Below are positions 1 to 45,338 of a stretch of 45,338 nt of DNA, one piece after another. A model generated the notes under the pieces. The model was not told where the DNA came from. It did not search any database and worked only from the letters and a program-made list of their open reading frames with translations. A program made the translations under genes and the position numbers. This DNA is from a virus, in the IMG/VR virus record IMGVR_UViG_3300003973_000003, positions 1 through 45,338 of that record. One strand, given 5' to 3'. How positions within the stretch are numbered: the stretch's first letter is position 1; every line of letters starts with the position of its first letter.

Positions 1-1
1 C

Positions 2-619
<618 letters not shown>

Positions 620-640
620 TAGTTTGATCGCGGTTTAATT

Positions 641-666
641 AATGGGGCTTCGGCCCCATTTTCGTT
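641..666 (+). terminator. Rho-independent terminator or attenuator after the SSB-like gene
   Basis: aatggggc-ttcg-gccccatt stem with a UUCG loop, followed by a ttttcgtt tract. Confidence 0.65.
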
Positions 667-676
667 AGGGTGAATA

Positions 677-1546
677 ATGGATATCAATGAACAAGCATCT
701 TTAAGTTTGATTGCGACTCGTATTAAGGCTGACGTTGACGCAATGGCTATCGCCCGGTATGCAGACGACCATCGCACGCACTTAGGTGCTTCGACAATCG
801 CCGAAGACTGTTTGAATTACCAATGGCTTACGTTCCGTTGGGCCGACAAGGAAGATTTGTCAGGACGCATGTACCGGCTGTTTCAACGCGGCCATCGTGA
901 GGAACCTATCGTTGTTGACTATCTCGAACATATCGGTTTTAAAGTTAGCACTGTTGACCCTGAAACGGGTATGCAATGGCGGGTTAGCGGCGTCAACGGG
1001 CATTACGGCGGCTCTTTGGATGGCATCGCAACTATGCCCACAAGTTACGGCTTCGGCGATCTTCGCGTCCTGTTGGAAGTCAAAACTAACGCTACAGGGT
1101 TGTCGTTCACGAAGTTGACGAACGACGGCGTAAAGATGCAGAAACCGACGCATTACGGTCAACAGTGTGCATATGGTTTCGAAAAGGGACTCACTCATTC
1201 GCTGTACGTGAACACGAATAAGAACGACGACGACATGCATATCGAAATCATTAAACTCGATTGGGAGTTAGGAAAGCGATTGCGCGAAAAAGCCGAACGT
1301 GTAATCAATTCGCAGGAACCGCTTGGCAAGATCGCAAAGTCATCGACACACAAACTTTGTAAGTATTGCAAGTTCGTACCTGTATGTCATGACGGTAAGA
1401 AGCCTGAAAAGTCTTGTCGTTCGTGCGTCAGTGCGCGGCCTGTCGAAAATAAAGAATGGTATTGCGACAAGTGGAATGCTATAATCCCGAACAAAGACGC
1501 TATCAAGTCGGGCTGTGATAGCTGGAACGCAATCATTAACGGGTAA
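677..1546 (+). CDS. PD-(D/E)XK exonuclease, Cas4/RecB-like, with a Cys cluster
   Basis: 289 aa. GSLDGIAT...LLEVKT gives the D...ExK core. C-X2-C-X5-C (CKYCKFVPVC) plus an N-terminal Cys (AEDCLNY) matches Cas4/AddB Fe-S nucleases. There is an extra CRSC...C...C tail. SD AGGGTG lies upstream. Confidence 0.8.
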   Translation: MDINEQASLSLIATRIKADVDAMAIARYADDHRTHLGASTIAEDCLNYQWLTFRWADKEDLSGRMYRLFQRGHREEPIVVDYLEHIGFKVSTVDPETGMQWRVSGVNGHYGGSLDGIATMPTSYGFGDLRVLLEVKTNATGLSFTKLTNDGVKMQKPTHYGQQCAYGFEKGLTHSLYVNTNKNDDDMHIEIIKLDWELGKRLREKAERVINSQEPLGKIAKSSTHKLCKYCKFVPVCHDGKKPEKSCRSCVSARPVENKEWYCDKWNAIIPNKDAIKSGCDSWNAIING

Positions 1547-1549
1547 AAC

Positions 1550-3205
1550 ATGGATTTACGCTGGTATCAGAACGGGGCTGTCGATTCGTTCTTTAACTTC
1601 CTCTGTACGAAAGAAGACCCTAGGGAAAACCCGCTTGCGGCACTCCCGACGGGTACGGGTAAGTCTCCTGTTCAGGCCGGTTTCATCAAAAGGGTTATCG
1701 AAGAATGGTCTAACCAGCGTTTCATGTGCCTGACTCACGTAAAAGAGTTAGTTGACCAAAACTCCCGAACCCTACGTCGGATGATGCCTAACGCACCTAT
1801 CGGCATTCATTCGGCAGGTTTGAAACAAAAGGATTTCGCGCAGCCTATTATATTCGGAGGTGCTGGATCGGTCGTTAAAAACATAGACATGTTCGGGCGT
1901 CGTGATATCTGCTTCGTTGACGAATGCCACATGATAGGCGGGGCGGATACCAAGACCTACGCCGCCATCATTGCAGGACTTCGCCGCAACAATCCTAAAA
2001 TTAGGTTCCTGGGGTTGACCGCTACGCCGTACCGTATGAAACAGGGTATGATTACCGACGGGGGCGACCCGTTCACCGAAATATGCTACGACATGACTAG
2101 CATGGAATCATTCAACCGTTTGTTGAATGAGGGTTTCATAGCCCCGTTGGTCGCACAACCAACGTCAGTAACTTACGACGTAAGTAGTGTTAGCGTGAGT
2201 GGCGGTGAGTTCAATAAAAGCGCATTGCAATCGCAGGTCGATAACGACATGCTTAATAGGGCGTGCGTCGAAGAAATGGTTGAACGGGCGCATAATCGCC
2301 ACTGCTGGCTAGTGTTTGCATCCGGTATCGACCATGCCGAACATATCGCCGAAATGCTGCAAGAGTACGGAATCAACGCGATGGCCGTACATTCAAAGCT
2401 TGACAGCGGCGAACGTGACAGACGGATTGCGTTGTTCAAGACGGGTAAGATTCGATGCCTTGTCAACAACGGCGTATTGACAACAGGATTCGACCATCCA
2501 CCAGTGGATTTTATCGGTATGATGCGTCCGACGTTATCGCCCGGTCTGTGGGTTCAAATGTTAGGCCGTGGTACACGAATCTATGATTGGTGGACTGAAT
2601 CGCTTTACATACCGGGCTTCGACTACACTAAATATAACTGCCTTGTGTTAGACTTCGCTGGTAACACGCAACGCCTGGGGCCGATCAACGATCCCAAAGT
2701 TCCGCGCAAAAAGGGACTGGGCGGCGGCGACATGCCGATTCGAGTATGCGACCGCTGTAAGACATATAACCACGCTTCGGCGCGATACTGTGGCGGTAGT
2801 CCTACCCCGTCGTTCGCCGGATGCGGATTAGAGTTCACGTTCGAAAGTAAACTGGAAGACACCAGCAGCACGGCCCCGTTGATTGCGAACTATGAAGCCC
2901 CGACGGTTGCATACTTTGACGTTCGAAAGGTAACGTATCAACTACACAGAAAAGACGGGTCGCCCGACTCAATGCGTGTATCGTATTACTGTGGGGAGCG
3001 AAAGCCGTTCGAAGTCTGGATTGCATTAGAAAGTACAAGAGGTAAACACGTAGCATCGCAATGGTGGAAACAGGCCGACGGGGATCGAGTCCCGCAAACA
3101 ACAGCCGAAGCGTTAGAGCGCGCTCCGTATATTAGGACGCCAAAGCGCCTTAGAGTTCAAACAAACTTAACCTATCCGAAAGTGTTGAATTATGAATACG
3201 AATAG
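1550..3205 (+). CDS. SF2 DNA helicase (DEAD/DEAH, ResIII-like) with a C-terminal zinc ribbon
   Basis: 551 aa. Motifs: LPTGTGKS (Walker A), VDECH (motif II), LTATP (III), QMLGRGTR (VI), CDRCKTYNHASARYCGG...GCG. Confidence 0.9.
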   Translation: MDLRWYQNGAVDSFFNFLCTKEDPRENPLAALPTGTGKSPVQAGFIKRVIEEWSNQRFMCLTHVKELVDQNSRTLRRMMPNAPIGIHSAGLKQKDFAQPIIFGGAGSVVKNIDMFGRRDICFVDECHMIGGADTKTYAAIIAGLRRNNPKIRFLGLTATPYRMKQGMITDGGDPFTEICYDMTSMESFNRLLNEGFIAPLVAQPTSVTYDVSSVSVSGGEFNKSALQSQVDNDMLNRACVEEMVERAHNRHCWLVFASGIDHAEHIAEMLQEYGINAMAVHSKLDSGERDRRIALFKTGKIRCLVNNGVLTTGFDHPPVDFIGMMRPTLSPGLWVQMLGRGTRIYDWWTESLYIPGFDYTKYNCLVLDFAGNTQRLGPINDPKVPRKKGLGGGDMPIRVCDRCKTYNHASARYCGGSPTPSFAGCGLEFTFESKLEDTSSTAPLIANYEAPTVAYFDVRKVTYQLHRKDGSPDSMRVSYYCGERKPFEVWIALESTRGKHVASQWWKQADGDRVPQTTAEALERAPYIRTPKRLRVQTNLTYPKVLNYEYE

Positions 3206-3440
3206 TCTTGTCCAACTTGGGGTTTCCAAAGAAAGGGCGGAATTGATGGTTTCCGTTCAAATGTCGTTTCAGCGCGACTTAATGCGGCGCGGTAATTGGC
3301 AGTCGTGTTTGAACTGTCTGAACTTCGCTCCAGGCAACGGTAAGAGTGTGGGGCCGAAATGTGAGGTTGCCGGGGTACTCCCGCCACCTGACGTAATCGT
3401 GTTCGGTTGCGAGAAACACGAAGACGACATTCCATTTTAG
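3192..3440 (+). CDS. Small zinc-ribbon protein ending in EDDIPF (SSB C-terminal-tip-like)
   Basis: 82 aa. CLNC...KCEV...GCEKH gives four Cys. The C-terminus ...KHEDDIPF resembles the proteobacterial SSB tip DDDIPF. The ORF overlaps the helicase stop by 14 nt. Confidence 0.6.
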   Translation: MNTNSLVQLGVSKERAELMVSVQMSFQRDLMRRGNWQSCLNCLNFAPGNGKSVGPKCEVAGVLPPPDVIVFGCEKHEDDIPF

Positions 3441-3448
3441 AGGTAATT

Positions 3449-4468
3449 ATGGCTACTAAAAATGTAGGGCGTTCACGTGCTGTATCTAAAAAGAACGCAA
3501 TTGCCGCGCCGGGTTTGGTTGCGGCCTTGGCGTTTGTAAGTGTTGCACAACGCGCAAAGGGTCTAACGTTTCAAACTCACGTACGCATGCAACGGGGTCA
3601 ACTTTTGGCGTGTGACGGGCTTGTTACGGCTGGCCACCCAATCGAGGAAAATTTAGATGCATGCCCACAATCGGCCGTGTTCGCGGTCGCACTTAGCAAG
3701 TGTGTTGACACGTTGACGCTTACGGTCGGCGACGATTCGAAAGTCCACGTTGCATCCGGCAAATTCAAGGCTAAGATTCCTTGCGCTAACCAGGAAGAAA
3801 TGCAAGAGTGTCGTCCAGACCCTAACGTTCACGCTATAGGTGAGGGTTTCCGCGAATCCCTGGCCGCTGCCGCAATGCTGGCATCCGAAGGGGCAACGGA
3901 CTTAGTTTGCGGAAGCGTACTTGTGACGGCAAATACTGTAATCGGGACGAATCGTTTCACCATGATCGAGCATTGGCATGGTATGCGTCTTCCCGATTGT
4001 GGAATGGTAGTGCCGAAAGCCAGTTGCGTAGCTCTTGGTAAAATCGTCGGAACGCTGGTAGGGTTCGGTTATAACCACGAAGCGAAAACATGTACGTTCT
4101 GGTTTGAAAACGGTTCGTGGCTCAAAACTCAATTGATGGAAAACAAGTGGCCGAACACTACGAAAATGCTTGAGTCGGCGCATGAAGCATGGCCAGTCCC
4201 TGACGACCTGTTCGAAGGTGTTCGCTCAATCATGGCCATAGGCGACGATGACATTATCCGTTTCGAACCAAGTATGATAAGATGCGGGGGCGCTAGTAGC
4301 GAAGGGACGTATGAAGTTGAAACCGGAATCGACGGCCGCGCTTTGAACGGGAAATATCTTATCGCCCTGGCCAAGTACATCGAAACGTTCGACTATATGT
4401 CAGACCACTTAAAAGCGACATTCCGTGGCGCGAATTGCCGGGGGCTGATCGCAGCATACAAGGCGTAA
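3449..4468 (+). CDS. Putative sliding clamp (DnaN beta-like)
   Basis: 339 aa from ATG 3449, with SD agagg 8 nt upstream. Patterns such as VASGKFKAKIPCANQEEM and MVVPKASCVALGKIV resemble DnaN. The gene sits between the helicase and the polymerase. Confidence 0.55.
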   Translation: MATKNVGRSRAVSKKNAIAAPGLVAALAFVSVAQRAKGLTFQTHVRMQRGQLLACDGLVTAGHPIEENLDACPQSAVFAVALSKCVDTLTLTVGDDSKVHVASGKFKAKIPCANQEEMQECRPDPNVHAIGEGFRESLAAAAMLASEGATDLVCGSVLVTANTVIGTNRFTMIEHWHGMRLPDCGMVVPKASCVALGKIVGTLVGFGYNHEAKTCTFWFENGSWLKTQLMENKWPNTTKMLESAHEAWPVPDDLFEGVRSIMAIGDDDIIRFEPSMIRCGGASSEGTYEVETGIDGRALNGKYLIALAKYIETFDYMSDHLKATFRGANCRGLIAAYKA

Positions 4469-4469
4469 C

Positions 4470-6596
4470 ATGTTCTTTACAGACGAACAATTAGCCCGCA
4501 ACCCACGGGCTAAACAGAAACTAGCGAAAGCAGATTTCGTACCTAAGAAGCTGAAATATTTTGATACGGTTGAAATACCGTATCAAGAGTTCAGCGATAT
4601 GACACTGCTTTCGGTTCGCGGTTGTACTCTTATCTACGATATCGAGTGCTACCCTAACTATTTCCTAGCCGCGTTCAAGTGTCCGAAAACCCGATTGGTA
4701 GTCACGTTCGAGCGTTCGCCCGATGCCGACTTTGATCGGGACAAACTCGTATGGGTACTTAACAACTTTGAGTTGGTAGGTTTCAATACCCGTAAGTACG
4801 ATGAATTAATGGCGTGGCTTGCTGTTTGGGGTTCGACCAATGAACAGCTAAAGTACGCATCCGATACCCTTATTACCGTTGACGGAATGTCAGGCCCGAA
4901 GCTGGCTAAGGAAATGGGGGTAAAGATTCCGAAGACGAATCAAATCGATTTGATCGAGGTCGCCCCTCTTCGCGCCTCACTCAAGACGTATGCGGGCCGT
5001 ATGCACGCGCCGCGTATGCAAGACTTGCCGTACGATCCGGCGTTCCCGTTAAGTCGCGCCCAGGCCCGCGTAGTGCGTTTCTACTGTATCAATGACCTAG
5101 ACAATACCATTCTGCTGTGGAAAGACCTGTTACCGCATCTTAGATTGCGCGTCCAGCTTTCCGAAGAGTACGGCCAGGATTTGCGGTCACGTTCCGATGC
5201 GCAGATTGCCGAACACGTATTGACGGCCGAATGCGAAAAGATTAACGGCTACTTTGCGAAGCGTCCGATTATCAAGCCGGGTACGTGTTACAAGTATCAA
5301 CCTCCCCCGTTTATTCAGTTCGCAACACCGGAATTGCAAGCGATTTTCCGAAACATATGTGAAGCCGATTTCGTCATATCCGAAAAGGGTCAACCGAAAT
5401 GTTCGTACCTCAAGGGTTTGAAAGTACGTATCGGCGCAAGCGTGTACAAAATGGGCGTGGGCGGTCTGCATAGTAGTGAAAAGGCTACGGTACACTACGC
5501 CCGCGACGGATGGTTGTTAATTGATCGTGACGTAGCCAGTTACTATCCAGCTATCATTTTGAACAACGGTTTCTTCCCTAAGCATCTTAAAGAAACGTTC
5601 CTGCAAGTGTACCGCAGTATTGTAGATCGTCGCTTGCGTGCTAAAGGATTAATGAAGTCGTCCGACTTGTCGGTAGCCGAAACGAACGCGATCATTTCTG
5701 AGTCGCTAAAGATTACGATTAACGGGTCATTCGGAAAGCTTGGTTCGAAATGGTCGGCTCTGTATTCTCCCGACTTGTTAATTCAGGTAACTTTGACCGG
5801 CCAGCTTGCCTTGCTTATGTTAATCGAAGCCCTGCATAATGTGGGCATCAATACTGTATCGGCCAACACTGACGGTATTGTGATTAAGGTTCACGAAAGC
5901 GCGTACGACGAACTTAATCGCATCGTAGGTCTTTGGGAAAAACATACCAAGTTCGAAACCGAAGAAACGCAATATTCAGCAGTATTTAGCCGTGACGTTA
6001 ACAACTATATGGCTATTAAAAAGTACTACGATAAGAAGGTGAAACAATGGACGACAACATATCCCGAATTGAACCATAAAGGGGTGCCGTTCAAAACGTC
6101 CGATAAGGTTAAAGGTAAGGGGGTATTCGGCGAAACGACATTGAAGAAACAACCCACCAATGAGATATGCGCAAAGGCGGTTGCCGAATTTCTGCTTAAC
6201 GGGACGAGCATTGCCCACACTATCCAGGCATGCAAGGCTTTGTCCGATTTCATCACCGTTAAGAGCGTCAAAGGCGGGGCCGAAAAAGACGGGTGGTATC
6301 TAGGTAAGGCGATCCGATGGTATTACGGTCGCGGTATGCGGGGTACTATTAATTACGTTAAGAACGGCAATACGGTAGGTAATTCGGAAGGTGCGACACC
6401 GTGTATGGATTTACCGGAAGTATTCCCAAGTGACGTTGATTACGATTGGTACATCAATAACGCCGAAGGTATGCTAAAGTCGATGGGGTATTATGGTGTA
6501 GCCAAAGAAGCCACCGCGTTCGATCTGTTTACAAGTGCTAATGTGGAAGACGAACACGAAGAGGAAGACGAAGAGGAAGAATCTTTAGAGTGGTAA
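4470..6596 (+). CDS. DNA polymerase, family-B-like, with a 3'-5' exonuclease domain and an acidic C-terminal tail
   Basis: 708 aa. Exo motifs: YDIECYPNYF, FNTRKYDELM, YCINDLD. Polymerase motifs: DVASYYPAII (DxxSLYPS-like), KITINGSFGKLG, SANTDGIVI (DTD-like). The C-terminus reads AFDLFTSANVEDEHEEEDEEEESLEW. Confidence 0.9.
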   Translation: MFFTDEQLARNPRAKQKLAKADFVPKKLKYFDTVEIPYQEFSDMTLLSVRGCTLIYDIECYPNYFLAAFKCPKTRLVVTFERSPDADFDRDKLVWVLNNFELVGFNTRKYDELMAWLAVWGSTNEQLKYASDTLITVDGMSGPKLAKEMGVKIPKTNQIDLIEVAPLRASLKTYAGRMHAPRMQDLPYDPAFPLSRAQARVVRFYCINDLDNTILLWKDLLPHLRLRVQLSEEYGQDLRSRSDAQIAEHVLTAECEKINGYFAKRPIIKPGTCYKYQPPPFIQFATPELQAIFRNICEADFVISEKGQPKCSYLKGLKVRIGASVYKMGVGGLHSSEKATVHYARDGWLLIDRDVASYYPAIILNNGFFPKHLKETFLQVYRSIVDRRLRAKGLMKSSDLSVAETNAIISESLKITINGSFGKLGSKWSALYSPDLLIQVTLTGQLALLMLIEALHNVGINTVSANTDGIVIKVHESAYDELNRIVGLWEKHTKFETEETQYSAVFSRDVNNYMAIKKYYDKKVKQWTTTYPELNHKGVPFKTSDKVKGKGVFGETTLKKQPTNEICAKAVAEFLLNGTSIAHTIQACKALSDFITVKSVKGGAEKDGWYLGKAIRWYYGRGMRGTINYVKNGNTVGNSEGATPCMDLPEVFPSDVDYDWYINNAEGMLKSMGYYGVAKEATAFDLFTSANVEDEHEEEDEEEESLEW

Positions 6597-6600
6597 AGAA

Positions 6601-6627
6601 AAGCCCGGTTAGAACCGGGCTTTTTTG
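6601..6627. terminator. Bidirectional rho-independent terminator between the convergent polymerase and tail-fibre genes
   Basis: aaaagcccggt-taga-accgggcttttt: a GC-rich stem flanked by an A-run and a T-run. Confidence 0.85.
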
Positions 6628-8784
6628 TTACTTAGCTTCCAGGGCGGCAAGTCTCTTTTCAATCTCAAGTTGTCGGCGTCGCAAACCTGCCGCTATGAAC
6701 AGCGACAACTGTTCGTATCGAAGCGAATAACGGTCGCCAGCTTCACGGGTAAGACGTTTTGTTGCTGGTGAGCCTTCGATGCCTGGGGAGCCGGGGATAG
6801 CTGCCGAAATCAACACCCCGCGTTCATTGTATTCGGCCGGTCGCGCTGCCGTAGCTGGTACGGCTACGATTTCAGGGGAAGTATAATATTCGTCGCCCCA
6901 TTTGTCGTAACAAACCATACCGTACATCATCGGCGATAGTCCGTTCGCTTGCATGATTTCAATTACTTTCTGAACAGTAACCCCGACATGCAAACGGGCG
7001 CTGTCCCCTTCGGCCGCGACTTTATCGAGCCAACGGAACGTGCCTATTTCGTCGGATATCGCAATTGCGGCTTTAATTTCGGCGTCGTTCAGTTTTTCGA
7101 CTTTGGTTTTAAACCTTGAATCGGACGTAAGGATAGTACCGTTAACCGCGTATACGCTTTTCCAACGCGACCATGACGCACCTAAGTAAACTTGATCGTC
7201 ATCGTTACCCCTGAATATCGAAGTTGCACCTTCGTACGTCGCTACTATTACGGCGTGACATGCCGACGAGTTACCAGAGCCGAATAACGTTGACGTACCC
7301 TGTTGCCATATTCCGCCGAACCCGCCTTGATCTTGCAGCACCACACCACCACCGTACGAACCACCTGCAACCAAGGATGCCTTGTCTTGCCATCCTGCCG
7401 CGAACGGGTTGAATACATTGGATGATGAGCCGAGTTGGTTAAAGTTCTGTTTCACAGTAAACTGCGAACTGGACGCACGCATTGCAAACGGGCCTTGGGG
7501 TTGATTATCGACAAATAGCGTCAAACCGTCACCAGTCCAGCCAACGTTTAACTTGTTAGTCCCTTGGCCTGTCCCGCCTCCCTGTTGTACTGGAGTCCAT
7601 CCTAATACATCCTGCTTTGCTGCGAACTTAGCGGCCATCCCTCGAATATTGTTTGCGACAAGTTCGCCGGGTATTTCAACCTTGCGAGTCCCGTAAAAGG
7701 CAACAACATGTGTCGTTTCGCCGGTCTGTTCGTCAGAAGCGTACAGCGATAGCGATTGGGCTTCCTTGTATAGCGGAGTCGCGGCCCCTGCGCTATCATC
7801 GCCGCCGAGTGTTTTCCATCGCCATTGACCCCTAAAGTTGATCCCGGCACGGCCAGCAACACCGAATCCCGCCGCCGTTATCTGAGTTGTCGAGTTATCG
7901 ACACTTTGCAGCATTGATCCGAATTGCAGGGTAGCCCCGGCCGTAACTGACGCAGCACTGATTATCGACCCCGACGAAGCGAACCCTCCCGCATTTAACA
8001 ATATCGACTGATCGCCAGCACCGACCCTATATTCACGAACAGCCTGTTTCGCTGTAGCTGGTAACGTCCATCCGTTCGGCATTTCGACAACAGGACTTTT
8101 CACCCATATTGCCGTGTATAGAAACACAGTCGGCGTCGAATACGCCGCTAACTGGATATATACTTTATTTGTCGCTAAGTCGATTGCAACAGCAGGTTGC
8201 CTAAGCTTGTTACCTATAGAATAAGTACCAAGTTTGATTTCGCCGTTATTATCGCAAGCGAAATCGATATAAGTTGTACTCGTACTAGGCGTGATCGGCG
8301 CTCCCGTGTTATGACCGTAATCAACGCAACCCTGTACTATGATACTTCCGCGCTGGCCACCAGCTACAGCAAGCGTTGCGATATGAACCCAACGAGCCTC
8401 ACCGCCGACTTGTCCCACAGCCGAACTTGCGAAACACGCACCGTAAATAATGCTGTCGCTGATGAACGGGCTGTTGGTTTCAACTTGCCCTGTTATCTTC
8501 CCGCCAGCCTTGTCTAACTTGAGGTTGAGCGCTTGACTGTTCGCGGTAAGCGCGGCGATTGTTGCGTCGCTGAGTGGTTTTTCTTTATCGCTTGTATTAT
8601 TAACGCGGTCAAGCCCAATAATCGCAACAGATACACTAAGGTTCGTACGGTTAATTCGAAGCTGCGCGGGGGTCGTAGAATACACCTCTTCGATTTTCGC
8701 GTTGTTAAGTGAAACAAAGTTATTATCAACTTCGTCATACGATAAAATATCGCCCTTATTACGCCGTAATGTTATAGCTGCCAT
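6628..8784 (-). CDS. Tail fibre/spike with a C-terminal intramolecular chaperone (peptidase S74-like) domain
   Basis: 718 aa. The N-terminus LSYDEVDNNFVSL and GLDRVNNTSDKEKPLSDATIAAL are typical fibre motifs. The C-terminus reads SDSRFKTKVEKLNDAEIKAAIAI...FRW...LHVGVTVQKVIEIM...YDKW, an S74 auto-cleaving chaperone pattern. Confidence 0.85.
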   Translation of the reverse strand: MAAITLRRNKGDILSYDEVDNNFVSLNNAKIEEVYSTTPAQLRINRTNLSVSVAIIGLDRVNNTSDKEKPLSDATIAALTANSQALNLKLDKAGGKITGQVETNSPFISDSIIYGACFASSAVGQVGGEARWVHIATLAVAGGQRGSIIVQGCVDYGHNTGAPITPSTSTTYIDFACDNNGEIKLGTYSIGNKLRQPAVAIDLATNKVYIQLAAYSTPTVFLYTAIWVKSPVVEMPNGWTLPATAKQAVREYRVGAGDQSILLNAGGFASSGSIISAASVTAGATLQFGSMLQSVDNSTTQITAAGFGVAGRAGINFRGQWRWKTLGGDDSAGAATPLYKEAQSLSLYASDEQTGETTHVVAFYGTRKVEIPGELVANNIRGMAAKFAAKQDVLGWTPVQQGGGTGQGTNKLNVGWTGDGLTLFVDNQPQGPFAMRASSSQFTVKQNFNQLGSSSNVFNPFAAGWQDKASLVAGGSYGGGVVLQDQGGFGGIWQQGTSTLFGSGNSSACHAVIVATYEGATSIFRGNDDDQVYLGASWSRWKSVYAVNGTILTSDSRFKTKVEKLNDAEIKAAIAISDEIGTFRWLDKVAAEGDSARLHVGVTVQKVIEIMQANGLSPMMYGMVCYDKWGDEYYTSPEIVAVPATAARPAEYNERGVLISAAIPGSPGIEGSPATKRLTREAGDRYSLRYEQLSLFIAAGLRRRQLEIEKRLAALEAK

Positions 8785-44246: not shown

Positions 44247-44927
44247 ATGAACCAAAAAGACTTGCGCCCCGCTGGAACTTTCGCGCAGAATTACGGCGTG
44301 AAAATGCTGGCGTACGGGCCACCCGGCCAGGGTAAGACGCCCCTGATTAAAACAGCGCCACGCCCCGTCTTGCTGTTCACCGAACCCGGCATGTTGTCAA
44401 TGAAGGGTAGCGATGTACCGGCGTTCGAAGGCAACAACGTGAAACGCATTGACGAATTTTTCGAATGGGTTGAAAAGTCGAATGAGATTCGCAACTTTGA
44501 CACAATCGGGGTTGATTCCGTGTCTAACATGGCCGAAATCTTCCTCGCCGAAGAATTACCTAAGCAGCGTGACCCGCGTAAAGCTTACGGTAACATGTCA
44601 AACTGGGTAATGGCCCACTTGAATATGCTGTACTATATGAAACAGAAACACGCATATTTGATTGCGAAAGAAGCGCGTATTGACACGGGCGAATCTTCCG
44701 GGGTATGCTCTTATTTCCCAGGTAAAGATTTAAGCGTAAAGGTTCCGCATCTTTTCGACCTGATCGCCAGGGTAGCAAAGGCAACCGTACCCGGACAGCC
44801 GATGCCAGTATTAGCAATTCGCTGTGTAGGTAATGTGGTGGAACATGCCCGCGACCGTACCGGCAAATTGAACGAATTGGAACCGCCGAATTTGGCTAAC
44901 CTGTTCAACAAAGCAATGTCGAACTAA
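44247..44927 (+). CDS. Sak4-like RecA-fold ATPase (AAA_24 type ssDNA annealing / recombination protein)
   Basis: 226 aa. VKMLAYGPPGQGKTPL is the Walker A and IGVDSVSNM is Walker B-like. The pairing with a downstream DUF669-type gene is typical. Confidence 0.8.
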   Translation: MNQKDLRPAGTFAQNYGVKMLAYGPPGQGKTPLIKTAPRPVLLFTEPGMLSMKGSDVPAFEGNNVKRIDEFFEWVEKSNEIRNFDTIGVDSVSNMAEIFLAEELPKQRDPRKAYGNMSNWVMAHLNMLYYMKQKHAYLIAKEARIDTGESSGVCSYFPGKDLSVKVPHLFDLIARVAKATVPGQPMPVLAIRCVGNVVEHARDRTGKLNELEPPNLANLFNKAMSN

Positions 44928-44984: not shown

Positions 44985-45338
44985 ATGGCAAAGATGCAAG
45001 CATTCAACCCGGCACAACACAACCCAGTTCAATCGGACGGCAACATGCCTATCGGCAAGTACGTCGTAATGAACATCGGTTCGGATGTTGTCGCGTCCGG
45101 TAGTAACGCCAACTCGGGTCTGGTGAAATACAAGGCGCAAGTCATGACCGGCGACAACAAAGGTCTGAGTGGCGCAATCCGTTTCAACTTGTGGAACGTC
45201 AGCGACAAGGCCCGCGAAATCGCAGAACGCCAATACTCGGCAATGTGCCATGCTATCGGTGTTGTCGGCACCGTACACGATTCCGCGCAATGTCACGGTA
45301 TCGCGTATATGATCGAAGTCGGCCCATCCCGCGACGAA
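44985..45338 (+). CDS. 5' part of an SSB-like ssDNA-binding protein (DUF669-type). The gene continues at 2..619 through the window junction.
   Basis: ATG at 44985 is open to the window end (118 codons: MAKMQAFNPAQHNPVQSDGNMPIGKYVVMNIG...). The last 34 codons are identical to the start of ORF 8..619. The gene sits directly after a Sak4-like ATPase, the usual DUF669 context. Confidence 0.75.
   Translation, partial: MAKMQAFNPAQHNPVQSDGNMPIGKYVVMNIGSDVVASGSNANSGLVKYKAQVMTGDNKGLSGAIRFNLWNVSDKAREIAERQYSAMCHAIGVVGTVHDSAQCHGIAYMIEVGPSRDE
45236..45338. repeat. Second copy of the terminal duplication (identical to 1-103)
   Basis: Direct comparison with bases 1-103. Confidence 0.95.

Follow-up and report, generated by a model that had tools for sequence, protein, structure and literature searches.

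A probable SSB-type docking tip on a small Cys4 protein encoded next to a RadD-like helicase in phages

The C-terminal tip (hereinafter, SSB-Ct) of SSB, the bacterial protein that binds single-stranded DNA, docks into pockets on many partner proteins, and this mode of interaction is well established (the Escherichia coli tip is MDFDDDIPF; PMC10238739). When examining the replication genes in a 45,338-nucleotide stretch of viral DNA (positions 1 to 45,338 of the IMG/VR record IMGVR_UViG_3300003973_000003; hereinafter, the window), we found that an 82-residue protein with four cysteines, encoded by an open reading frame (ORF) located between the genes for a RadD-like helicase and a sliding-clamp-like processivity factor, carries a close likeness of this peptide, EDDIPF, at its extreme C-terminus. 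The tip is present in all homologues of the small protein that we detected and, in related phages, recurs on other proteins of the same replication module. We conclude that this is very probably a functional docking tip of the SSB-Ct type carried by a small, helicase-associated metalloprotein.

A conserved phage gene

The ORF starts with ATG, comprises 82 codons and encodes MNTNSLVQLGVSKERAELMVSVQMSFQRDLMRRGNWQSCLNCLNFAPGNGKSVGPKCEVAGVLPPPDVIVFGCEKHEDDIPF, with the end ...GCEKHEDDIPF immediately followed by the stop codon TAG (3438-3440). A previous reading of the window made from the letters alone (hereinafter, the sequence-only reading) had singled out this ORF, with its four cysteines and HEDDIPF end, between the helicase and the clamp-like gene; it had the frame, the ends and the position right, and its comparison of the end with the bacterial SSB-Ct stands as well. 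Among the 210 ORFs of at least 40 codons in the six frames of the window, this is the only one whose product ends in PF.

The small protein matches PHROG 23504, a family of "unknown function", with residues 20-82 aligned to positions 16-73 of the 73-position profile, and the homologues from phages Salmonella S1 and Vibrio R29Z match the same family; scans of Pfam and NCBIfam with the small protein gave no match. A tblastn search of 50,697 phage records detected the protein in 152 of these, with alignments that, among the 120 rows listed, extend to residue 82 almost throughout; the hosts of these phages include Xanthomonas, Achromobacter, Pseudomonas, Escherichia, Vibrio and Sphingomonas, and further Rhizobium, Salmonella, Microcystis and Synechococcus. 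When 1.84 billion cluster representatives were searched exhaustively with phmmer, 89 matches were obtained, one of which is a low-complexity artefact; the other 88 are true homologues, with mutual identity below 50%, and the columns that are invariant across all of them are C39, C42, C57, P64, P65, C73, P81 and F82. The closest relative, with 57% identity and the same gene order, differs mostly at third codon positions, and the comparison with this closest gene gives a proportion of nonsynonymous differences (pN) of 0.29 vs 0.78 for synonymous ones (pS), which fits purifying selection in the frame of the small ORF. The ORF is a genuine phage gene, and in every record examined the members of its family are labelled "hypothetical" or left unannotated.

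The C-terminal tip in the family

The sequence-only reading had proposed that conservation of the ORF and of its terminal IPF be examined in homologues, and both proved to be high. All 88 homologues stop directly after [IVLT]PF: the proline and the phenylalanine are present in 100%, and the preceding residue is isoleucine in 86% and valine in 10%. The motif thus lies at the extreme C-terminus in 88 of 88 proteins, so that the carboxylate of the phenylalanine is free. Upstream of the motif, an acidic residue occupies position -4 in 70% of the homologues (aspartate in 62%), position -5 in 44% and position -6 in 53%, and the net charge over positions -8 to -3 is negative in 78 of the 88; the window protein has E-D-D here. 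The tail after the last cysteine is exactly nine residues long in 76 of the 88 proteins, with the consensus C-x-x-[W/H]-[E/D]-[D/F]-D-I-P-F. The phmmer query included the tip, and weak tip-less homologues could be missed by such a search; the approximately 25 homologues that score more than 10 bits over the threshold, and accordingly would be found without the tip, all carry it.

In the AlphaFold2 model of the small protein, the predicted local distance difference test (pLDDT) score is about 92 for residues 71-80 and 63 for residues 81-82. Judging by this decrease at the last residues, and by the low scores in the tail and tip of a tip-bearing helicase (see below), the tip may be free.

A separate observation concerns Serratia phage Niamh, in which an ORF located directly after a more distant RadD-like helicase encodes gp49 (locus L016, 6683-7000), a protein that has no PHROG or Pfam match and ends in ...YVCPNWVWDDVPIA. 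This end (DDVPIA) resembles the C-x-x-W...D-[IV]-P pattern of the family, without the terminal phenylalanine, and gp49 may be a degenerate or divergent, tip-less relative.

The same tip on other proteins of the module

In related loci, which were taken from phage GenBank records, the tip is found on other carriers. Two phages that do not have the small ORF, RcTitan (Rhodobacter) and PaMx42 (Pseudomonas), have clamps that end in ...YYDPDDEIPF and ...DDPYSDDIPF, respectively, with the clamp domain itself ending about 34 and about 21 residues before the tip (loci L007, 5153-6379, and L008, 5140-6279). In Queuovirinae, in Rhizobium phage 16-3 and in Moraxella phage Mcat17, the tip is fused to the RadD-like helicase by a disordered tail, with the ends ...DLDDDIPF in PaMx25, ...DPDYVPF in Greed, ...DPDVPF in Vid5, ...IDDMPF in Mcat17 and ...LDDEVPF in 16-3. 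The helicase of PaMx25 has its PF end in common with 118 of its best 120 homologues (DIPF in 99, EIPF in 12), and 8 of 9 positions agree between the consensus of the helicase tails, D-[M/L/F]-D-D-D-I-P-F, and the tip of E. coli SSB; 30 helicase tails end in D[F/M]DDDIPF. The acidic run is stronger in these tails (95-96% at positions -4 and -5, 86% at -6) than in the small-protein family. The tip is preceded by a variable, unconserved linker of 40-60 residues, and a conserved FDGTAFG strand lies before the tail. In Brucella phage Bk, it is the SSB of the module (phrog_9002, E=5.9e-81) that ends in the tip, ...DLDDEIPF, and the helicase is tip-less. The helicases of mycobacteriophage Rosebush and of a Tunturiibacter phage are too distant, and their loci are without the tip.

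SSB itself is built from a folded domain, a linker that varies and a tip that does not, and this design is the hallmark of short docking motifs. The presence of the tip on four different carriers in one module family argues strongly that it is functional, and it behaves like a portable module among SSB, helicase, clamp and small protein. The view of the sequence-only reading that the docking peptide is carried by a separate protein is strongly backed by this comparison and is essentially right.

The SSB of the window has a Q/N/G-rich disordered tail that ends in DNKPQWAK, and is 39% identical to gp33 of RcTitan, which matches DUF669. In the 15 loci that we read, the DUF669-type SSBs end in P-x-W-[G/A]-x and never in PF, the ends seen being KPQWAK, QPAWGQPR, GGPWGQR, TPPWAQPQQ, VPPWQQ and NKPWVRG. 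The sequence-only reading was correct in that the SSB ends in DNKPQWAK, without PF, but overlooked that the protein has a conserved P-x-W-[GA] tip of its own. This non-acidic end motif, P-x-W-[G/A]-x(1-6), has the look of another docking tip, separate from the IPF one, and the Sak4-like protein of the module is perhaps its target. Two long ORFs in this region, 195..638 on the plus strand and 379..777 on the minus strand, are by-products of the CAG/CAA-rich repeat that codes for the SSB tail and are not genes.

Linkage to the helicase

The protein encoded upstream of the small ORF has E. coli RadD (PDB 6jde) as its best solved relative, with E=3e-47 over residues 3-404. Against the NCBIfam RadD model, it scores 240 bits (E=2.9e-71), with residues 1-407 aligned, vs an equivalog cut-off of 720 bits; given this score and the partial alignment, we describe the helicase as RadD-like rather than as RadD. 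In the window, the small ORF starts 14 nucleotides inside the end of the helicase gene, and in 12 of 14 loci, drawn from different phage groups, the start of this ORF overlaps the helicase stop by 8-50 nucleotides. The overlap is kept where the clamp and the family B DNA polymerase (PolB) follow downstream (the window, Langgrundblatt1, Halfdan, Suba and Eidolon), where queuosine-pathway genes follow (Baskent_P4_1, Vibrio R29Z, Me-ZS1, Ssp-JY38 and RHph_Y17) and where other genes follow (Salmonella S1). Because the overlap is kept whatever comes next, the constant partner of the small protein is the helicase and not the clamp; the sequence-only reading had correctly located the gene between the two but missed this tight linkage to the RadD-like helicase.

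The linkage is breakable, as indicated by the arrangement in Pseudomonas virus Pa-V (Iggyvirus; locus L011, 3468-7653), where the small gene is found 2.2 kb downstream of the helicase, directly after a QueE-like gene. On the other side of the small ORF in the window, the ATG of the clamp-like gene (3449) is nine bases past the end of the ORF and is preceded by GAGG. In Halfdan and Langgrundblatt1 (loci L002, 6221-6523, and L001, 6232-6582), an additional ORF of 100-117 codons lies between the small protein and the clamp; its product combines a Cys/His cluster near the N-terminus with a conserved ...LLxRSxVGxAKYGVT...LQHALEEALDxANYL region, and has no counterpart in the window.

The Cys4 domain

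The AlphaFold2 model, which was based on the 88-sequence alignment, has a mean pLDDT of 93.5 and consists of two helices (residues 3-8 and 13-32) followed by a loop-rich Cys4 domain. The cysteines are spaced as C-x2-C-x14-C-x15-C, with an aromatic residue or a histidine three positions after the last one (H76 in the window), and the spacing of 15 between the third and the fourth cysteine is kept in 78 of the 88 homologues. A Foldseek comparison of the model with the PDB revealed no resemblance (E >7), and the viral models that it matched all belong to uncharacterised members of its own family, the Halfdan protein among them. No PDB sequence was matched with E <0.01 in a profile search; the matches to Cas8/Cas5-8 of Tn6677 (E=0.04) and to XPA (E=0.37) were taken as chance. 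The segment of residues 36-46 (3297..3330) has the pattern W-x-x-C-[LI]-N-C-x-N-[WFY] and matches Cas8/Cas5-8 of the type I-F3 Cascade (6pif, 6lnb) with E=0.04-0.18; these matches to a transposon-associated complex are probably fortuitous.

The sequence-only reading had described the small protein as a zinc ribbon. We rejected this assignment as probably wrong: CxxC occurs only once, the remaining two ligands are isolated cysteines 15 residues apart, and no such family appeared in the Pfam, PDB or Foldseek searches. The resemblance that did emerge is to the high-potential iron-sulfur protein (HiPIP). HiPIP 1hpi is fifth in the list of non-significant PDB profile matches (E=0.48), a HiPIP is the nominal top, similarly non-significant, Foldseek match in the PDB, and HIPIP (PF01355) is the commonest Pfam family over the 88 members, with weak matches for five of these (best E=0.002); no member reaches the Pfam gathering threshold, and the window protein itself is unmatched. 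The direct comparison of the family with a HiPIP alignment using hhalign gave a probability of 72%, P=3.3e-5 and a score of 31.0, with all four cysteines aligned as well as the W/H position three residues past the last one. None of 200 column shuffles reached this score (mean 10.4-10.8, standard deviation about 2.4, maximum 24), and the reversed profile scored 15.6. From these comparisons, a HiPIP-like [4Fe-4S] site appears somewhat likelier than a zinc site; this likeness makes no claim of membership in the HiPIP family.

Possible functions of the tip

In the small protein, a helical segment at the N-terminus is followed by a compact Cys4 domain and then by a six-residue acidic tail with a terminal Ile-Pro-Phe-COOH. 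Because its gene is translationally coupled to that of the helicase, the two proteins would be made together, and the small one might be the detachable "SSB-tip" subunit of the helicase. The folded body would hold the helicase or the replisome, and the free tip would plug into a pocket of the SSB-Ct type, with a hydrophobic hole for the phenylalanine and a basic rim for the carboxylate and the aspartates. Since the DUF669-type SSB lacks an SSB-Ct-type tip, phage recombination and replication intermediates would regain, in trans through the small protein, their link to SSB-docking proteins. The likeliest partners would be SSB-interacting proteins of the host, for example, the clamp-loader subunit chi, PriA, RecQ, ExoI and RNase HI; given that the phage encodes a clamp and that none of the window proteins scanned matched a clamp loader, the host clamp loader might be brought in by the tip via chi.

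A host receptor is favoured by the behavior of the tip, which is invariant across phages of very different hosts, as the bacterial SSB-Ct is, and identical to the host tip. The SSB tip of alpha-proteobacteria is LDDEIPF (PMC13490951); in phages of these bacteria, the tail versions of the tip are DDE[IV]PF in three of three cases, and the DLDDEIPF of Brucella phage Bk equals the alpha-proteobacterial SSB-C8 motif. Several observations weigh against such a role. The acidic residues at positions -4 to -6 are only 44-70% conserved in the small proteins, and those from two alpha-proteobacterial phages, the Sphingomonas phage Eidolon (...IDVIPF) and the Rhizobium phage RHph_Y17 (...GDIPF), have no glutamate at position -4. 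The tip lies only six residues beyond the folded domain, which limits its reach compared with the long flexible linker of SSB, and the modules of H40/1 and Adzire are without the tip in the stretch examined. Furthermore, a primase, a polymerase and a clamp are encoded by the phage itself, so that its need for host factors is not obvious; and no clamp-loader match was found in the replication module and ten other ORFs (Pfam, PHROGs or NCBIfam), a scan that left out the structural-gene region at about 9-30 kb. On balance, we put the full mechanism, with host SSB partners as the receptor, at roughly even chances.

The receptor might instead be a phage protein, either the RadD-like helicase, in which the tip would occupy the pocket of RecA-like domain 1 and stimulate or regulate the ATPase, or the Sak4-like annealing ATPase. 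In E. coli RadD, the best solved relative of the phage helicase, the SSB-Ct pocket on RecA-like domain 1 includes R21, R49 and R145 and is lined by T16, L17, F20, L44, L113 and L147, and SSB-Ct binding stimulates the ATPase (PMC10238739). Among the 17 phage helicases that we compared, the hydrophobic pocket positions are kept, and so is the equivalent of R145 (R152 in the window, K or R in most relatives); the adjacency and the translational coupling of the helicase and small-protein genes point in the same direction. By contrast, the equivalents of R21 and R49 are not conserved, being often Asp, Glu, Gly or Asn, and in the AlphaFold2 model of a tail-bearing helicase (120-sequence alignment), the body has a pLDDT of about 90 whereas residues 569-591, including the tip, are at 36-37, so that docking in cis is not predicted. 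For the helicase as the receptor, these comparisons and models lean negative. With regard to the Sak4-like protein, which is encoded in the window, the precedent is Sak4 of phage HK620 that requires the last six residues (NDYPPF) of its DUF669 SSB (PMC5928155); however, the P-x-W tip of the module SSBs could itself serve Sak4. Moreover, the IPF is strictly kept in phages whose hosts are gamma-, beta- and alpha-proteobacteria and cyanobacteria and is identical to the host SSB tip, which a host-constrained receptor would explain more easily, and we regard a receptor encoded by the phage as possible but rather unlikely.

Alternatively, the small protein, made in excess, could be a competitive decoy for the SSB-Ct pockets of host proteins (ExoI, RecQ, RecJ partners, PriA, Ung), shutting down host genome maintenance or anti-phage nucleases. 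Its small size and host-like tip are compatible with such a role, and there is a potential parallel in the SSB-like protein of the BASEL phage, Bas52_0087, with the end FDDDIPF, which has been proposed to interfere with SbcB in the triggering of DRT10 (bioRxiv 10.64898/2026.04.29.721553). Yet the covalent attachment of the tip to the helicase, the clamp and the SSB in related phages fits tethering better than titration, translational coupling implies roughly stoichiometric synthesis rather than excess, and a decoy would have no need for an invariant Cys4 domain. The presence of the tip on enzymes such as the helicase and the clamp favours recruitment, and a decoy function appears improbable. 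Even less credible, in our view, is the idea that the terminal IPF belongs to the small fold as a structural element or is a motif by which the sliding clamp is bound. Such a role would account for the tail that is fixed at nine residues in most homologues, for the high confidence with which residues 71-80 are modelled and for the frequent adjacency of the gene to the clamp gene. Clamp-binding proteins, however, display a Q-L-x-L-F pattern that is not seen here; ends that do resemble clamp motifs, ...SASLF and ...ELAFF, are found on PolB proteins; the clamp itself can carry this tip, as can helicases, at the end of disordered tails that are long and variable; in many phages that encode the small protein, no clamp of the phage is found in the vicinity; and the confidence of the model drops at the last two residues.

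A further elaboration of the recruitment of SSB-docking proteins by the small protein takes its HiPIP-like features into account. Conceivably, the two jobs of SSB have been split, with the DUF669 protein coating single-stranded DNA and the portable tip performing the recruitment, and the cytoplasmic [4Fe-4S] carrier would make the docking of the phage helicase or replisome to the host SSB interactome cluster-dependent or cluster-sensing; this is a speculative idea to which we attach a fairly low probability.

The replication module and the genome

The first 103 nucleotides of the window (1..103) are identical to the last 103 (45236..45338), from which it follows that the window covers an entire phage genome of approximately 45.2 kb, assembled as a circle (or terminally redundant). 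Given this terminal identity, the SSB gene spans the genome junction: the sequence-only reading, which had placed it at 2..619, had its end right, but the gene starts at 44985, on the other side of the junction, and encodes 289 residues. A megablast comparison of positions 1-8000 with a phage collection gave no DNA-level match, and this phage is known at the protein level only.

The genes of the module are listed in Table 1. The wider module, which includes the Sak4-like ATPase, the SSB, the Cas4-domain exonuclease and the RadD-like helicase, is conserved, and between positions 677 and 6596 there are no terminator-like sites on the plus strand. The Pfam DNA_pol_B match to PolB is weak. The strongly acidic tail of this polymerase (6530..6596), ...EDEHEEEDEEEESLEW, has a terminal aromatic residue, and the PolB orthologues of RcTitan and PaMx42 end in ...ESASLF and ...GELAFF, respectively, ends that resemble clamp-binding motifs. 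The primase-polymerase contains the NrS1-1 HBD (NrS-1-type helix-bundle) and DUF3987 domains of Pfam; with this gene, the phage brings its own priming enzyme.

Table 1. Features of the replication module in the window and in related loci (L numbers denote related loci)
Feature	Position	Strand	Match or basis
Cas4-domain exonuclease, same module	677..1546	+	phrog_1990, E=9.2e-88
RadD/YejH-like superfamily 2 (SF2) helicase, 551 residues	1550..3205	+	phrog_16; PDB 6jde; NCBIfam RadD
Small Cys4 protein gene, 82 residues and stop	3192..3440	+	PHROG 23504, E=7.6e-15
Putative Cys4 metal- or cluster-binding core	3306..3410	+	C39 3306-3308, C42 3315-3317, C57 3360-3362, C73 3408-3410
SSB-Ct-type tip, E77-D-D-I-P-F82	3420..3437	+	all 88 homologues end in [IVLT]PF
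Sliding-clamp-like processivity factor, 339 residues, tip-less, end ...LIAAYKA	3449..4468	+	phrog_947, E=1.3e-46
Family B DNA polymerase (PolB), 708 residues, acidic C-terminal tail ...EEEDEEEESLEW	4470..6596	+	phrog_1252, E=1e-203
Primase-polymerase / DUF3987 helicase-like protein, 814 residues	40522..42969	-	phrog_3022, E=4.8e-230
Sak4-like ATPase / single-stranded DNA-annealing protein	44247..44927	+	phrog_124, E=8.4e-40; Pfam AAA_24
DUF669-type SSB, 289 residues	44985..45338 (5' part), then 104..619 (3' part, at 1..619 of the window)	+	phrog_6015
Tip-bearing RadD-like helicases	L009 3498-5273, L010 3501-5477, L012 5001-6857, L014 4992-6668, L015 4998-6728		
Related DUF669-type SSBs with Q/N/G/P-rich tails	L001 1944-2762, L002 2072-2881, L007 1204-2022, L009 1445-2287, L010 1691-2524		

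Significance and relation to known systems

Genome maintenance in bacteria has its central docking code in the C-terminal tip of SSB, which has also been proposed as a target for antibiotics. The presence of this tip on a small metalloprotein, a helicase, a clamp and an SSB implies that this code is modular and separable from single-stranded DNA binding. The natural split and fused versions of the tip in tractable phages, for example, Escherichia phage Halfdan, can reveal which partners the replisome must reach, and the tips themselves would be compact natural ligands of SSB-Ct pockets that might be used as probes or inhibitors; SSB-tip compatibility already limits the portability of recombineering between hosts. 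Should the Cys4 domain bind an iron-sulfur cluster, it would represent a HiPIP-like fold in a replication setting. In the literature, we came across no phage protein other than an SSB for which an SSB-type tip has been described, be it a Cys4 protein, a helicase tail or a clamp tail. The docking code as such is known; what appears to be new is that it has moved to a small metalloprotein of its own and is mobile between the components of a module.

The closest known counterpart of the tip is the E. coli SSB-Ct, with which it shares the location at the extreme C-terminus, the free carboxylate, the Pro-Phe, the isoleucine at position -3 and the acidic residues upstream, the last five residues being the same in EDDIPF of the window. 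The carrier, however, is not an SSB with an oligonucleotide/oligosaccharide-binding (OB) fold and displays no sign of single-stranded DNA binding, the tip follows the Cys4 domain after six residues rather than being located on a long disordered linker, and the binding of partners by the small protein is a prediction. Phage SSBs with SSB-Ct-like tips, in HK620, Bas52_0087 and Brucella phage Bk, belong to the same kind of module, with a Sak4-like protein and an SSB, and use the same kind of docking peptide. In the window, by contrast, the PF tip is absent from the SSB, whether by loss or from the outset, and is found on the separate 82-residue protein.

For the Cys4 domain, the parallel is HiPIP, in which the pattern C-x-N-C ... 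C ... G-(W)-C-x-x-[WH] is shared and all four cysteines can be aligned. HiPIP precursors, however, consist of about 120 residues and have a leader, whereas the small protein starts directly with its N-terminal helices and possesses an extra N-terminal helix and the acidic tip; considering the lack of a leader and the location of the gene in a phage replication operon, the small protein is presumably cytoplasmic.

Among phage proteins, gp2.5 of T7 has an acidic C-terminal tail that ends in phenylalanine and docks onto the polymerase and the helicase. The acidic tail, the terminal aromatic residue and the connection to docking in replication are all similar; however, gp2.5 is the SSB itself, and its motif is not IPF and is phage-specific rather than host-like. 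Finally, the window helicase is RadD-like over residues 3-404, and E. coli RadD is a documented binder of SSB-Ct, but the C-terminal third of the phage protein is unrelated, and conservation fails at two of the three arginines of the pocket. The roles in the two systems are also distributed differently: E. coli RadD is known only to receive the tip, whereas in the phages it is the helicase side that carries it.

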